A DNA stretch of 53,048 nt from a virus (Duplodnaviria > Caudoviricetes): positions 1 to 53,048 of IMG/VR virus record IMGVR_UViG_3300030090_003345, one strand, 5' to 3'. Below are positions 31,529-49,879 of the stretch, in pieces. Positions within the stretch are counted from its first letter, which is position 1. Each line of letters starts with the position of its first letter. The notes beneath the pieces are model-generated. The model saw nothing but the letters and a program-made list of their open reading frames with translations. It ran no database searches and had not been told where the DNA came from. The translations under genes were made by a program, and so were the position numbers.

Positions 31529-33777
31529 TAACTAAACGCCAACTGTGGAGCACCCAAAAGGATGCGGTTTGATGCCGCTACGACATACGGAATGATGTCT
31601 GTAGTGCTTGCGGCACTGGAGAGCGTTATCCCTGCACCAGCGGCTGTTTCGTAGTCTGTCCCCAAACTCAATGTTCTACCTCCAGTAGAGTCTTGTATGC
31701 ACACAATAAAGCCCGATTGACCAACCGTCTCAGTGGACGGGTTAGCCAACGTGACGTTACCTGTCAGTGTCAAAACAAAATTTTGGTTGGCAGAAAAGTC
31801 TAACGTGACACTGCCCGTATTCGACGTATCTGTGTCTGTCTTAGCTGTCGCAACAGCACCCACAGTCAAACCACCCGCTATGGTAACATTAGTTGTGCCT
31901 GTGGGGATCTCAATTACATCTGCGTCAGCATCGTTTTTGATTGTTACGTCGTTAGTAGAACCTTGTCCTGTAAGAATCAAACCCTCTGTCGATGTAAAAC
32001 CCATAGCCGCATTGTCACCAGCGGAGGTATCTCCGGTAGCCTCAACAGTGCCGCCAGTAATTACACCCGTGGTGGTGATAGCACTAGCACCGTTATCTAT
32101 AGCACCAAAGCCGCTTGTAATAGAGCCGCCGTCTAACGCTCCTACTGAAGTAATATTAGTTTGTGCCGCTGTTTGAAGAGTACCTGTTAAATTACCGTTG
32201 ATATTACCCGTTACATTTCCAACAACATTACCCGTAAATCCGTCTGACGTTACGGTGCCTAATGAAGAACCGCCATCGGCAAAAGTAATTGTGCCGCCAT
32301 CAGCATCTAGCGTAACTCCACCACTGGAGTTAAGCGTGACTGTTGTACCTGCAAGTTCTGCTGTACCATCAGCGGTAATTGAAATATTAGCGGCGGCGGC
32401 GGCAGTGTCCGTTGTTGCAATAGCCAACGTACCGTTTGTACCGGCGGTAATTGTAGCCGTATCATCAGTCGAACCAGTGAGGGTAATTACTTTACCATCA
32501 ACCGTAACATCGTCTACAGTTAAAGCCGATAAAGTTCCTAAAGAAGTTACGTTTGTCTGTGCCGCAGTTTGAAGAGTGCCCGTTAAATTACCGTTAATAT
32601 TACCAGTTACATTTCCAACGACATTACCAGTAAACCCGCTGGATGTTACAGTTCCTAACGACGAACCCCCATCAGAAAACGTTATAGTTCCGCCATCCGC
32701 ATCAAGTACAACCCCGCCACTAGAGTTAAGTGTTACTGTAGTGCCCGCAAGCTCTGCCGTTCCGTCGGCTGTTATAGTTATATTAGCGGCGGCGGCGGAG
32801 GCATCCGTAGTTGTGATATCTAACGTGCCATTTGTTCCTGCCGTTAGCGTTGCAGTATCGTCAGTAGAACCAGTTAAAGTAATGACCTTGCCATCTAAAG
32901 CTACGTCATCGGCAGTCACAGAACCCCCAGTAATAGCTCCCGTAGTAGTAATAGTACTTGACCCAGTATCAATGTTTCCAAAACCACTTGTTATTGACCC
33001 AGAGTCTACGGCACCTATTGATGTAATCGCACCACCTGTGTAAGTTTTAAGATCAGCGACAGTTATCTGTTTCATCGTGCCGTCGTCATTTAGAATGATT
33101 TGATCGGCATCTACTACGGTGGTGCTACTAGAAGAAGTATTACCATCCATGATATTCAGTTCAGCGGCTGTAGCAGTAACGTTGGTGCCACCAATATCCA
33201 ACGTAGTCATACTAACTTCACCAGCAACGGTGACTACACCAGAAGCTAGAGTCATCAAGTCAGTATCACTGGTGTGTCCGATTGTTGCACCGTCAATATT
33301 GATGTTGTCAATAACAGCCTGTGTTACAGCACTATTTGTACCTAACGTAATTCCGTCTACAGAACCTCCATCTATGTTCGCTGTGTCTGCTACAAGCGCG
33401 TCTGTGGTCACAGTGCCATCAAAGAACGCATCTTTAAACTCTACAGAACTAGTACCTAAATCCACATCGTTATCTGTAACGGGAACAATTGCACCATCTT
33501 GAAAACGAACCTGTTCTACAGTAGAACCCGCACCGCCCGCATCTACGAACACACCTACTCGATTATTAGTGTTGTCTACTACAACTTTATTTAGAGGTGT
33601 AGTTACACCCGGGTCGCCTATTAGACCAATTACAGGTCCCTCAGCCGCCGTCCCATCGTGCTTATGTCCAGTAGAATTATTAAAAGCGGAAAGAACCTGA
33701 TTAAACTCATCATTTGAGTGTGCCGCTGTTATAGTGTCGCCGTCAGAATACGAGGACTGCCTAGTGTATCCCGCCAT
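31528..33777 (-). CDS. Tail fibre / spike protein, T/G/S/D-rich
   Basis: N-terminal GYTRQS...GHKHDG anchor typical of podoviruses; internal repeat. Confidence 0.75.
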   Translation of the reverse strand: MAGYTRQSSYSDGDTITAAHSNDEFNQVLSAFNNSTGHKHDGTAAEGPVIGLIGDPGVTTPLNKVVVDNTNNRVGVFVDAGGAGSTVEQVRFQDGAIVPVTDNDVDLGTSSVEFKDAFFDGTVTTDALVADTANIDGGSVDGITLGTNSAVTQAVIDNINIDGATIGHTSDTDLMTLASGVVTVAGEVSMTTLDIGGTNVTATAAELNIMDGNTSSSSTTVVDADQIILNDDGTMKQITVADLKTYTGGAITSIGAVDSGSITSGFGNIDTGSSTITTTGAITGGSVTADDVALDGKVITLTGSTDDTATLTAGTNGTLDITTTDASAAAANITITADGTAELAGTTVTLNSSGGVVLDADGGTITFSDGGSSLGTVTSSGFTGNVVGNVTGNINGNLTGTLQTAAQTNVTSLGTLSALTVDDVTVDGKVITLTGSTDDTATITAGTNGTLAIATTDTAAAAANISITADGTAELAGTTVTLNSSGGVTLDADGGTITFADGGSSLGTVTSDGFTGNVVGNVTGNINGNLTGTLQTAAQTNITSVGALDGGSITSGFGAIDNGASAITTTGVITGGTVEATGDTSAGDNAAMGFTSTEGLILTGQGSTNDVTIKNDADADVIEIPTGTTNVTIAGGLTVGAVATAKTDTDTSNTGSVTLDFSANQNFVLTLTGNVTLANPSTETVGQSGFIVCIQDSTGGRTLSLGTDYETAAGAGITLSSAASTTDIIPYVVAASNRILLGAPQLAFS
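32140..32910 (-). repeat. Intragenic tandem duplication, 396-nt (132-aa) period
   Basis: DDVALDGKVITLTGSTDD...QTNVTSLG versus DDVTVDGKVITLTGSTDD...QTNITSVG. Confidence 0.9.
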
Positions 33778-35962: not shown

Positions 35963-36322
35963 TTAAGTTACTCCGGGTGTAAACAACTCTTCTACAGACA
36001 CAATTACATCAAGAGCATCAGCACTAGATGCAGTTGCTTTTAGAGTGTCTCCAGCATTAAAAATAAAAAACCCCTCTGATAATTGTAGATAAAGTTTTGT
36101 ATTTACTGTTGTAGTATTAGTAATCTTGTAAGTTGCAGAAGCAGAACTGTCTGTCCACTCCAAAGTTATGTCGGCGTTACTACCAGCTATGTTTCCTACG
36201 TGAATTAACTTTATTACGCCCGTATAGTTTGATGGACAAGTGTAAACAGTAGTTTGGTTCGTTGATGTTAACTTAACCCCTATGCTTCTTATTTTAGCAG
36301 TTGTTCCATCTAAAATAGGCAT
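35963..36322 (-). CDS. Small virion structural protein, putative
   Basis: TTVYTCP...AGDTL pattern; TAATG overlap gives start 36322. Confidence 0.6.
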   Translation of the reverse strand: MPILDGTTAKIRSIGVKLTSTNQTTVYTCPSNYTGVIKLIHVGNIAGSNADITLEWTDSSASATYKITNTTTVNTKLYLQLSEGFFIFNAGDTLKATASSADALDVIVSVEELFTPGVT

Positions 36323-36747
36323 TAGGGCCACTCACCGATACGCATAGCTTCTGATAGCTTATGTGCTCTTTGCCCAACTTGACGCGCCCAGCGGCTATCC
36401 ATCATTTCAATACTGGCTTGAATAAAGTCTTCTTGCTCAATAGCTAACCACATGTTTTGAAACTTGAGCAAAGTTGGAATGCCTAGATTAAAGCCCATGT
36501 CTACAAGCACTCGTTGACGAACAGCATCAAGTTCAGCAACCATCGGCTTTTTACTAAGTAATTCATCTTCTACAATCTTGATATCGTTCTTAAGAAGATA
36601 CCGCGCCTCATCTTCTGTAATACCACGATCTTCAATGTTACGACCTACTCCAATAGTTAGCTTATCAGCAGTGCATTGGTATGGCTTTAATTCAAGACCT
36701 TCATGTGTAATAAGCTGATCCTCTAGAGATACCATATCGTATTTCAT
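36322..36747 (-). CDS. T4-type (GH24) lysozyme
   Basis: HEG-x-PYQC-x-TIGVGRN catalytic region; MGFNLG; SRWARQV..RA. Confidence 0.9.
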   Translation of the reverse strand: MKYDMVSLEDQLITHEGLELKPYQCTADKLTIGVGRNIEDRGITEDEARYLLKNDIKIVEDELLSKKPMVAELDAVRQRVLVDMGFNLGIPTLLKFQNMWLAIEQEDFIQASIEMMDSRWARQVGQRAHKLSEAMRIGEWP

Positions 36748-46853: not shown

Positions 46854-48548
46854 TTAATATCCGAAAGTTGCATCTTGAGGTTGAAAGGTGCTGTTTTTTA
46901 TATCCCGAAGAGATTTATGAATGCTGACGTATCCAGTTGTTCTTGTCATGAGCATATAACGCAATGCATCATACGCGTGGTCTTCAGCTTTCGTGTCTAC
47001 ATCTTCACTGTTTGTTTTAGAGAGGGGTATACCAGCTAATTGTTTTATTATGTTAGTGCATGTACTAAAGAACTTTACTGTTGGTTCTTTTGTAAATTCG
47101 TTGTCTCCAAGACGACGATGTATTTCCATTTTGCCAGCAATACGACTACGATCAGACGGAATCCACCTACACCCACAACGAATCATAGTTTCGGCAATAG
47201 AAGGTCCATAGCCTGTTTTATTCCAGCATGATGAATCTAAAACAGTGTAATGAGGTTTAGGATCATACTGTTCTAATTCTAATATTTTAACGGCGAGTTG
47301 CTCCGCTGTAAAGTGCTTTACATAAAGCTCTCTATACACCCATATGTTGTTGTCCCAGTCGATTGCACCCCAGAGTACGCACGAAGGGCTTGCATAGCCG
47401 TAGTCTGCCGCTCTGATACGCGGCCAGTTGGTGGGCAACTCAAATGGATCAGCCACATGTTTGATTTTGTTAAATTCAGGAAAGGCACATCCTTCTGCCA
47501 CATCCCAATCGCCATCAAGTAATCTTTTTCTTTCGACTTCTGGGAGAGAAAGGAGCATTGCCTCATACTGTCCATCTGCCATGAGATATGGGTTGTCGGT
47601 AAGTCGTGCGGGTACGAATTTTCTCCAGTATAAAGGTTGACCGTGCTTGCTGTGACCCTCTGGGTATATAAGTGGCTTTTCAGATTCAATATCGCTGGGG
47701 ACGAAGCGAATGCCGGGTTCACCTTGGTCGATGTACATCTTCTTGACCCACCAGCCGCCAACGCCTCCGGGGTTAGCTGTACAGCGCATAGAGAGATTTG
47801 CGGAGAGTTCAGAGTCCGTGCTCCGTAAACGTGACCGTAGATATTCCCATACGTAGGGGGTGGGATACTGTGTAATTTCATCGATGGCTATCCAATTGAA
47901 GGCTTGTCCCTGATATCGGGTAACGTCTTTGTCTTTGTCAAGATAACTAAACCAGATAGTGGCCCCCGACGGGAAATGCCATGTGGATTTAGACTCTCTA
48001 AAGGAGGCACCGGGAAACGCCTTGGGATAAAGTTGTTTAGATTTGGAGATGAGTTCAGTCAATTCATCCAGAGTGCGACGGAGTAATAAACCACGATGAT
48101 TAGGATTATGGCAATAACGGAGAGGATCTGCCAAGAGAGCAAAACTCTTTCCTCCACCAGCCGCACCGCCGTATAATACATCTTGTTCAGGTGCTGACAG
48201 AAAGTCTTCTTGTGGTCCATCATTCGGTTTGAATACAACTTCAGATTCTCCCACAAGCTTTTTAACTGCGTCTGGTAAGGCATTTAAGTCTCCTACATCA
48301 ATTACTCGTGAATTTTTACCTTGTAGTGCTGTTTCTACTTTTTTAGCGGCACTCTCTCTTTTTTTAACTCTTTGTATTTGTTTATCAGCCGCCGCTCGTT
48401 TCTTTTCGGCTTCTTTCTTAGAACGGCGTATACTCGCCTGTGTGGCTCTCCGGGCTTTTTCGGCTGTGGAGAGGTTATAACGAGCTTTAGGCGCGTCAGG
48501 GTCCTTTCTAGGCCGTCCACGGGGACGTTTTAGGGCTTCACTGCTCAT
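46854..48548 (-). CDS. terL: Terminase large subunit
   Basis: Walker A YGGAAGGGKS, Walker B IAIDE, TANPGG, nuclease ADYG and DHAYDALRY. Confidence 0.95.
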   Translation of the reverse strand: MSSEALKRPRGRPRKDPDAPKARYNLSTAEKARRATQASIRRSKKEAEKKRAAADKQIQRVKKRESAAKKVETALQGKNSRVIDVGDLNALPDAVKKLVGESEVVFKPNDGPQEDFLSAPEQDVLYGGAAGGGKSFALLADPLRYCHNPNHRGLLLRRTLDELTELISKSKQLYPKAFPGASFRESKSTWHFPSGATIWFSYLDKDKDVTRYQGQAFNWIAIDEITQYPTPYVWEYLRSRLRSTDSELSANLSMRCTANPGGVGGWWVKKMYIDQGEPGIRFVPSDIESEKPLIYPEGHSKHGQPLYWRKFVPARLTDNPYLMADGQYEAMLLSLPEVERKRLLDGDWDVAEGCAFPEFNKIKHVADPFELPTNWPRIRAADYGYASPSCVLWGAIDWDNNIWVYRELYVKHFTAEQLAVKILELEQYDPKPHYTVLDSSCWNKTGYGPSIAETMIRCGCRWIPSDRSRIAGKMEIHRRLGDNEFTKEPTVKFFSTCTNIIKQLAGIPLSKTNSEDVDTKAEDHAYDALRYMLMTRTTGYVSIHKSLRDIKNSTFQPQDATFGY

Positions 48549-48942
48549 CTACAACGATTTCTTGCTTGGAGGGAAGTAGGACGACTCCGTGAACAGCCTG
48601 TATATTGACATTATGAGTTTCTTGCTTACCTAAACCCACACGATTTAACAGAGATTCAGCGGCTTGAAGGCGAATATTGTCGCCACGTTCTATTTCTGGA
48701 GCATCTATAGTAGAAATTAGCTTATTTACTGCTTTTACAGCCCCTCCTGCAAGCACACTGCGGGATCTTTCTATAATTTCAGTAGCTAAACTCTCTTTTA
48801 AGTGCCCTATGGAGCCTGAAGAGTACCCCGCCACCTCACAAGCACGGCTAAAATTACCCCCGTTATCAAAAAGAGCATCTAAAAAAATTTTTTGCTGTTC
48901 ATTTAGCTCTCTTTTACGAGTTTGCTGGGGTAATAAATTCAT
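48538..48942 (-). CDS. terS: Terminase small subunit, putative
   Basis: LNEQQKIFL...ACEVAGYS HTH; AAESLLNRVG; directly upstream of terL. Confidence 0.75.
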   Translation of the reverse strand: MNLLPQQTRKRELNEQQKIFLDALFDNGGNFSRACEVAGYSSGSIGHLKESLATEIIERSRSVLAGGAVKAVNKLISTIDAPEIERGDNIRLQAAESLLNRVGLGKQETHNVNIQAVHGVVLLPSKQEIVVDEQ

Positions 48943-49031
48943 ATTTTCTCCGAAAAACGTACAAAACGCAGTGGTGTAAAGACTTTATTACTGCAATGTC
49001 GATTCTCTTTACCGCTGGATTGCACAAATAC

Positions 49032-49061
49032 ATTATGGTAGCTAACTTTTAATTTTGTCAA
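49032..49061 (-). promoter_or_regulatory. Putative sigma70 promoter of the late block
   Basis: TTGACA-18-CATAAT, about 90 nt upstream of terS. Confidence 0.7.
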
Positions 49062-49076
49062 CTAAGATAAAAACAC

Positions 49077-49105
49077 TTGACGTAATTTAAATACGACACT
49101 ACACT
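49077..49105 (+). promoter_or_regulatory. Putative sigma70 promoter, divergent from the late promoter
   Basis: TTGACG-17-TACACT. Confidence 0.7.
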
Positions 49106-49111
49106 GGGTTT

Positions 49112-49188
49112 GTAAGCCCACGGGGGTATACCCCCAAGCTTATCCCGCCGCATACGCCCGCAGGTATCCCCTACTTGCGGGTTTTTTT
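49112..49188 (+). ncRNA. Candidate small RNA of about 77 nt
   Basis: Bounded by the promoter above and a terminator; has a 5' hairpin and no ATG. Confidence 0.55.
49157..49188 (+). terminator. Intrinsic terminator of the candidate sRNA
   Basis: CCCGCAGGTA-TCCCC-TACTTGCGGG-TTTTTTT. Confidence 0.8.
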
Positions 49189-49583
49189 ATGCCCGTTGAA
49201 TACCTACGGGGAGCCGGGAGTGTCCAATATTTGTACAACAACCTAAAAATAAAAAAAATACCGCCAGTTTGCATGTACATGTAGGGGTACCCCCAGTGGC
49301 CCTTGCCTACCGTAACCCACTGTTTTTATTATAATTCTTGTTTTGACTTACTGTAAATACCCTCATTGATGGAATCAAAAGTAAACCTGCAGTTTTCCCG
49401 CCAGTTCAAGCAAGACCATACGCACACCTGCGCGTATGCCCTACTTGCGCACCGTATTTACCCTTGATGACAAAAGTGACAACCAAAAACCTACCTTTTT
49501 CTTTCCCTTTAGATAGACCCCACTGGACACCCAGAAAAACCCGAAAGCTTTACCGGTCAACGCCTTAGGTATTTTTCTAGGAC

Positions 49584-49609
49584 AAAAAAAGGCCCCCGTA
49601 GTGGGGGCC
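49584..49609 (-). terminator. Intrinsic terminator of the early block
   Basis: Minus strand reads GGCCCCC-ACTAC-GGGGGCC-TTTTTTT. Confidence 0.85.
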
Positions 49610-49669
49610 AAAAAGCCGGCGGGATAATCTGAGATTGGAGAAACTCAGCACCGGCTTGAGGGAATGGGG

Positions 49670-49879
49670 TTACTCTGTTCGGATGGACAGATAGAGGTCG
49701 GAAGCATCAGACAGCAGTTTGTCCAGTTCCTTCATGAATGCTTGGTCAGCATCAGATAAGTAAATCTTACGCTCTATACCGGACCCCTCAACCTTACCGG
49801 CATAAGCATTACTAGACACAATTGAGCGCAGACGATTTATCTGGTCAGGCGTGAAACTCAGTGATTTTTTCATACGCAT
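49670..49879 (-). CDS. Hypothetical early protein
   Basis: 69 aa; GGGAG SD. Confidence 0.7.
   Translation of the reverse strand: MRMKKSLSFTPDQINRLRSIVSSNAYAGKVEGSGIERKIYLSDADQAFMKELDKLLSDASDLYLSIRTE

Follow-up and report, generated by a model that had tools for sequence, protein, structure and literature searches.

We identified a predicted noncoding RNA gene, which we call sRNA1, upstream of and on the strand opposite to the small-terminase gene (terS) of a marine phage. The window, that is, the whole stretch of DNA analyzed, is a 53,048-bp virus record with a completeness judged to be 99%. sRNA1 is probably a regulatory RNA, because related uncultured phages have retained it, and our best reading of the comparisons is that it represents a new phage sRNA family in an uncultured clade of an abundant marine phage group. 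We are confident, short of certainty, that the conservation marks a functional RNA gene. The full reading, a real sRNA gene of an uncultured HMO-2011-type clade that would act in trans through C-rich stretches, is put forward tentatively and with slightly more reserve than conviction. Phage-encoded sRNAs are already known as a kind, and what is new here is this family.

The plus-strand genes of the window lie between about 1.7 and 15.1 kb, and the remainder are on the minus strand, including those for an SU10-type portal and the large terminase TerL (46854-48548). A 134-aa open reading frame (ORF) at 48538-48942 on the minus strand has a weak small-terminase match and was taken as terS, with its start at 48942. 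About 730 bp of noncoding DNA separates this start from a 69-aa ORF (49670-49879), the last of the upstream minus-strand operon, and sRNA1 lies within this region (Table 1). A DNA-level similarity search of the window against deposited phages gave no match. The best cultured TerL matches were Roseobacter CRP phages and Pelagibacter phages, at 48 to 59% identity, and on this TerL comparison, read with the main text of PMC9038755, the window is an HMO-2011-type marine podovirus. The same main text describes the HMO-2011-type podoviruses as a dominant marine virus group with global distribution. Among matching stretches in viral contigs, at least 583 TerL relatives were confirmed; we refer to those with TerL at least 82% identical (82 to 98%) as the close clade and to those at 72 to 77% as the distant clade.

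Table 1. Features of sRNA1 and its surroundings, in positions of the window
Feature	Position	Strand	Description	Basis or remark
sRNA1 promoter, sigma-70-type	49077..49105	+	-35 TTGACG (49077-49082), 17-nt spacer, -10 TACACT (49100-49105)	9/12 to consensus
sRNA1	49112..49188	+	Predicted 77-nt noncoding RNA	Fold; R1 covariance model; no ATG
sRNA1 5' hairpin	49112..49143	+	Outer stem GUAAGC/GCUUAU, inner stem GGGGG/CCCCC, loop UAUA	Fold
sRNA1 linker	49144..49155	+	C-rich, unpaired, CCCGCCGCAUAC, 12 nt	Fold; candidate seed
sRNA1 intrinsic terminator	49156..49188	+	11-pair stem, UCCCC loop, U7	Terminator scan and fold agree
Block B	49261..49333	+	TTGC..GCA, GGGG/CCCC segment, GTGGCCCTTGCC, hairpin CAGTGG/CCACTG, T-run	35 distinct variants
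Divergent terS/late-operon promoter	49032..49061	-	TTGACA-18-CATAAT	11/12; -35 box 15 bp from the sRNA1 -35 box
terS 5' leader	48943..49025	-	83 nt, closed structured RNA, then U-run	Context, not part of sRNA1
Terminator of upstream operon	49591..49609	-	7 G-C pairs, T7	After the 69-aa ORF; bounds the noncoding region

The initial annotation, which was made from the window alone, had proposed a TTGACG-17-TACACT promoter leading into about 77 nt with no ATG, and both were found. GGG follows the promoter at 49106-49108, and the absence of any ATG between 49106 and 49188 leaves the unit ORF-free and ruled out its reading as a small ORF. A promoter scan over 3 kb returned 10 sites against 4.0 ± 1.9 expected, so a single 9/12 match is not significant alone; the significance of this promoter comes from its conservation. 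When we folded 78 nt covering sRNA1, the minimum free energy was -32.1 kcal/mol (z = -3.34), and none of 200 shuffled sequences was as stable. The fold recovered the 5' hairpin with GGGGG-UAUA-CCCCC and the linker as originally described. It also recovered the proposed terminator with its UCCCC loop and its U7 (49182-49188), and the stem (49156-49182), given as 10 bp, has 11 pairs when the closing G-U pair is counted. The terminator has the makeup of an intrinsic (Rho-independent) one, with a G+C-rich hairpin that runs directly into the U-run and a stem that is kept by compensatory changes among relatives.

We built a covariance model, R1, from 23 homologues (alignment A1). R1 gave a single match in the window, at 49111-49189 (64 bits, E value of 1e-11). 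Among the matches listed, it recognized all 16 close-clade loci that extend at least 1,100 nt upstream of TerL; 14 of these scored 50 bits or higher. Conservation of the promoter together with the terminator had been named at the outset as the point on which the proposal would stand or fall; in all 16 of these close-clade loci, among the matches listed, promoter, body, and terminator occur together, upstream of terS and on the opposite strand, with compensatory changes in the stems. The virome covariance search that had also been suggested gave the same 16 of 16 among the matches listed and, in addition, 13 of 13 metagenome stretches, 12 of them full length and 1 cut by a contig end.

An alignment of 19 loci showed conserved hexamers, a variable spacer, and a conserved 5' body and terminator. 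The relatives keep TTGACR, TACAAT, and GGG, and the 17-nt spacer is fixed in length and varies in sequence (about 35 variants). Conserved hexamers 17 ± 1 bp apart around a spacer that is free to vary would be expected of a sigma-70-type promoter and do not fit a protein-binding site. In relatives with 82 to 98% TerL identity, the RNA begins with the nearly invariant sequence (U)GUAAGCCCGCCGGGGUA, followed by an AU-rich loop of variable length, and a C-rich linker precedes the terminator. The GCUUAC partner arm is found in most relatives and is absent from 8 of the 23 sequences of A1. The terminator stem varies in sequence, its loop stays (G)UAYCCCCU, and a U-run follows. The predicted transcript, about 77 nt in the window, is 85 to 105 nt long in the relatives.

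The pattern of substitutions supports the predicted structure. Within A1, 90.4% of cells were paired, the covariation score was above those of all 500 shuffles, and in the terminator helix, 96% of cells were paired and 6 of 11 pairs had double changes. A second alignment, A2, holds 25 distinct sequences and was fitted to the model, so that it favors the structure; it was 92.9% paired, with double changes in 11 of 22 pairs versus a shuffle mean of 5.1. Its terminator helix was 97.8% paired and had compensatory changes in 8 of 11 pairs, and its 5' hairpin had them in 2 of 6 outer pairs. The changes in the 5' hairpin trace to a subtype of its stem, in which GUAGGU(U) paired with (A)CCUAC or AUCUAC replaces GUAAGC/GCUUAC; this subtype was found in L007, in L020, and in all 13 metagenome stretches. 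Homologues without the pairing partner of the 5' arm still have this arm almost unchanged, which suggests that it is under an additional constraint, for example protein binding or a DNA-level site.

The distant clade gave weaker signals. Of 30 loci, 11 had an R1 match (E value of ≤1, 18.8 to 27.8 bits), and side and strand were the same in every case. Four distant loci (L051, L055, L061, and L063) have no T-run of the scripted type within 200 nt of the conserved 5' motif, and in L058 and L066 a terminator is present with GGUUCGC-type motifs instead of C-rich ones. Since some distant relatives lack a T-run of this kind, the stand-alone sRNA form is not universal. The original description of sRNA1 as a stand-alone unit is thus borne out from promoter to terminator in the close clade, and it does not extend to those distant loci or take in the further conserved elements on the plus strand. 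As a separate observation, six distant loci (L058, L066, L068, L076, L077, and L060) keep the promoter and a GGGG-UAAACCC-AUAU hairpin, and repeated GGUUCGC motifs replace their C-rich parts, one of them in the terminator loop.

The sequence that follows sRNA1, from 49189 to 49580, consists of blocks that are conserved in order among the relatives. Downstream on the plus strand, these are small hairpins of the ACGG-UAAG-CCGU type, GTGAAACA repeats, an A-tract, block B, a CATCGGTGAT-like motif, and a GC-rich hairpin. Block B (approximately 49261-49333) is likewise conserved and plus-stranded, contrary to the initial annotation, which saw sRNA1 as the only plus-strand unit outside the replication block. 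The motif after its GGGG/CCCC segment can also be written GTGKCCCTTGC, and the variants of block B include the distant clade. RNAalifold found no consensus fold for block B on either strand; by eye, the G-U pairs that relatives have in its hairpin would fit the plus strand only. Two other readings of block B were dropped: as a small ORF, some relatives have an ATG and neither the ATG nor a frame is conserved (by eye), and, judged by eye, a sigma-54 element suits the distant clade only. Relatives such as L010, L012, L015, L018, and L024 have two GTGAAACA direct repeats, 12 to 13 bp start to start, and then the A-tract AAAAYNNNAAAAAATAT. The version in the window is degenerate (GTGTCCAA..TGTACAAC at 49220-49239), with the A-tract at 49242-49260. 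These repeats and the A-tract could be bound by a regulator or by TerS, or they could supply the -35 region for another plus-strand promoter.

Because conserved plus-strand blocks follow it and some distant loci lack the T-run, sRNA1 is, as judged from these alignments, a single module within a wider conserved control region. With its divergent consensus promoters, a structured terS leader, and several conserved blocks, the noncoding region of about 700 nt looks like a control center of late gene expression or packaging. We consider improbable an alternative in which sRNA1 is the first module of a composite region made up of sRNA1, the small hairpins, the GTGAAACA repeats, the A-tract, block B, and the GC-rich hairpin, and in which the product is a longer read-through RNA or the whole is a DNA site next to terS, for packaging (pac) or replication, bound by phage proteins. 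The ordered blocks are consistent with it, as are the distant loci that lack the T-run and the near-invariance in sequence of the sRNA1 5' arm. Block B, conserved in sequence (35 variants) and lacking a consensus fold, looks as a site for a protein or at the DNA level should. A composite site is also favored by the known pac regions of SPP1-type phages, which lie upstream of terS and contain repeats and A-tracts. However, the close-clade terminator is strong (at least 11 pairs, U6 to U8) and is kept by compensatory changes, and the constant hexamers around a varying spacer speak for a promoter rather than a protein-binding site. From such a terminator and such changes, a discrete short RNA would be expected as the main product in the close clade.

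We also considered whether a second copy of sRNA1 lies at 49343-49450, and this candidate was rejected since R1 recognizes one copy only in the window. Three colinear short repeats in this stretch (D1, D2, and D5; 81 to 90% identity) are similar to the sRNA1 promoter, linker, and terminator, and the stretch also has a hairpin (49417-49438). By visual comparison, it corresponds to a different, GC-rich hairpin block that is also present in relatives.

On its other side, sRNA1 stands back-to-back with the terS/late-operon promoter, and this arrangement is conserved in all relatives examined. In the listed relatives, TTGACA is the best-scoring -35 box of the late promoter in all but L062 (TTGACT); CATAAT is the commonest -10 box, with TAAAAT, TATAAT, or TATACT in some distant relatives. 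The 15 bp first reported between the two -35 boxes is correct for the window, and this closeness is what favors the idea, proposed along with it, of a switch in which the two promoters compete for RNA polymerase through overlapping elements. Yet even in the window the two boxes are separate, and in relatives they lie 15 to 92 bp apart (commonly 23 to 56 bp). Since the gap varies this much, overlap or competition is not the conserved feature, and the initial idea of a competing switch, weakened by this comparison, is now very unlikely.

The same arrangement allows a second account, in which transcription itself, and not its RNA product, is what counts. A strong outward promoter beside the late promoter and followed by terminators would form a transcriptional insulator or coupling device: its polymerases would collide with those reading through on the minus strand from the upstream operon, negative supercoiling would be supplied to the late promoter, and the product would be cis-antisense to the read-through. 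The conserved back-to-back promoters agree with this, and so does the position of sRNA1 between the upstream-operon terminator (49609-49591) and terS, because of which any minus-strand read-through would be antisense to sRNA1. In the window there is also a promoter-like site, TTTACA-18-TATAAT at 49357..49328 on the minus strand (11/12), that would transcribe antisense across block B and sRNA1. This site has no counterpart by eye in the closest relative, L002, however, and the gap between the divergent promoters is loose (15 to 92 bp). Interference alone, moreover, needs no conserved RNA body, whereas compensatory changes are seen in two helices and the unpaired parts stay C-rich. We regard the insulator in this general form as unlikely, and the same holds for the detailed version with collisions and supercoiling.

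The divergent transcript has a structured leader of its own. Among 29 relatives, the closing stem of the terS leader differs in sequence and its pairing stays (by eye from folds), and the U-run that follows is GUUUUU in the window and U7 in many relatives. This leader may be an attenuator or a terminated leader of the 34-kb late operon. A leader that is conserved and closed by a covarying stem before a U-run could be a partner of sRNA1, which would then control termination or translation of the late operon by pairing with it, and in some relatives the loop UCCCCUGC is by eye complementary to GCAGGGGA of the leader. But cognate pairs were no better than noncognate pairs in 29 phages (means of -35.8 versus -35.9 kcal/mol; permutation P = 0.585), and the leader of the window itself has no complementary site; pairing between sRNA1 and the leader is accordingly a most improbable function. 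The reading of sRNA1 itself as a terminated late-operon leader of the lambda 6S type was rejected as well: sRNA1 is on the plus strand, opposite to the minus-strand terS, TerL, and structural genes.

A regulatory RNA with its own promoter and terminator is the favored reading of sRNA1, and it matched no family that we searched. An Rfam search had been suggested, and no family of Rfam 15, which includes isrK, RsaE, phage pRNA, and alphaproteobacterial sRNAs, matched the window or 10 related loci at its gathering score; the best match over 49105-49187 was isrK, with 15.2 bits against a gathering score of 50 and an E value of 3.7. The cultured relatives CRP-13 and CRP-603, in which the region upstream of terS is short, had no R1 match. 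A bacterial homologue or host mimic was also sought with a 17-nt degenerate pattern, which occurred in 41 stretches in 185,579 prokaryote genomes; the best R1 score among them was 14.3 bits, and because none was above R1 noise, we treated all 41 as chance occurrences and dropped this candidate. A full-text literature search gave no paper joining HMO-2011 with a small RNA, and the words promoter, noncoding, intergenic, and small RNA are absent from the main text of PMC9038755.

The unpaired parts of the RNA are C-rich as a family property, and the terminator loop is nearly all C and U. In 25 distinct homologues, the linkers were 64% C and 9% G and the terminator loops 82% C and 0% G, compared with 35% C in the rest of the RNA, so that the conserved unpaired C-rich motif of the anti-Shine-Dalgarno (anti-SD) class of sRNAs is found in these homologues. 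CUCC, CCUC, or UCCU was present in 13 of the 25. The linker of the window itself, CCCGCCGC, is not a classical anti-SD sequence. At the phage's own gene starts (n = 39), AGGA was found 13 times, GGAG 11 times, and GAGG 8 times.

We searched for targets among the genes of the phages. Whole-sRNA duplexes with the 126 start regions of the window scored -21.75, equal to the shuffled controls at -21.56. Among five complete or near-complete relatives, the gene that contains the best site differed, giving no shared phage target, and when start regions were compared by orthologue, the best was that of a 122-aa gene (35963-36331), with a mean z of only -1.42. The C-rich anti-SD-like seeds proposed in the initial annotation were in this way upheld as a property of the family, in both linker and loop, and no phage target for them was found.

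Two further stretches of the window share sequence with the linker or its complement. At the start codon (33777) of a 749-aa minus-strand gene, the start region 33767-33777, AUGGCGGGAUA, contains 9 nt complementary to the sRNA1 linker; a 9-nt match is close to the chance expectation for 53 kb, and no matching signal was seen in the orthologues (mean z of -0.57). At the 3' end of the upstream operon (49534-49643, minus strand), a hairpin, AGCCGGUG..CGCCGGCU, contains UUAUCCCGCCG, the same 11 nt as in the sRNA1 linker, and is followed by the terminator. This stretch has subthreshold Rfam matches to several sRNA families, the best at 21.3 bits against a gathering score of 50, and the motif CTAGAAAAATACCTAAG after the upstream-operon terminator is conserved in relatives.

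The closest known architecture is that of RsaE/RoxS of the Firmicutes. In the parts of PMC2790875 that describe it, RsaE has a 5' hairpin and a terminator, and its unpaired UCCC motif binds SD sequences and blocks initiation. By that account, sRNA1 shares with RsaE/RoxS the 5' hairpin, unpaired C-rich motifs (UCCC/CCCC) in linker and loop, and a stable terminator. A block of initiation by SD pairing can be proposed for sRNA1 by analogy and not by family membership: the two are not homologous in sequence or structure (no Rfam match), sRNA1 is phage-encoded, and RsaE/RoxS is found in Firmicutes, whereas the cultured relatives of the sRNA1 lineage infect Alphaproteobacteria. It is the architecture shared with RsaE that leads us to favor a trans-acting base-pairing sRNA.

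Phages with similar short transcripts offer other comparisons. Lambda OOP and P22 sar are RNAs of about 70 to 80 nt with a constitutive host-type promoter and an intrinsic terminator, located at the boundary of regulatory and late genes, and they resemble sRNA1 in length, in having their own promoter and terminator, and in this boundary location. They act as cis-antisense RNAs on a defined overlapping mRNA, however, while the favored reading of sRNA1 is that of a trans-acting candidate. The lambda PR'-6S RNA-tR' unit places a strong constitutive promoter and a short terminated transcript beside the late and terminase genes; that unit reads into the late genes, and Q antitermination acts on it. 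sRNA1 is like it in having a predicted strong promoter and short terminated transcript next to terminase genes, but it points away from terS, and the divergent terS leader is the better analogue. An enterohemorrhagic Escherichia coli (EHEC) prophage sRNA and an ICP1/PLE sRNA are reportedly virus-encoded regulatory RNAs that act by base pairing, with experimental support; their sequences and hosts are unrelated to those of sRNA1, for which the support is comparative.

We infer the transcription of sRNA1, its action by base pairing, and the class of its targets, and we propose the following course. The near-consensus host-type sigma-70 promoter, back-to-back with the terS/late promoter, would drive a transcript of about 77 nt that would end at the strong intrinsic terminator. 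The exposed C-rich stretches would then pair in trans with G-rich, Shine-Dalgarno-like sequences. The targets would be host mRNAs, less likely phage mRNAs, and their translation initiation would be blocked. That sRNA1 works by a trans-acting anti-SD mechanism of this kind, as the analogy to RsaE suggests, is possible, and we come close to an even division on it without quite leaning its way.

Promoter, structure, and terminator signals are all clear in sRNA1, which makes it a compact and well-delimited RNA family. To our knowledge, very little work has been done on regulatory RNAs in lytic marine phages. In a wider proposal that we think unlikely as it stands, the clade would encode its own family of C-rich anti-Shine-Dalgarno RNAs, made by a consensus host promoter from the first minutes of infection and masking G-rich ribosome-binding sites of host mRNAs, and the neighboring block B and GC-rich hairpin module would likewise belong to an sRNA cluster. 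If this is true, it would be an RNA-based route to translational takeover in one of the ocean's most abundant phage groups.
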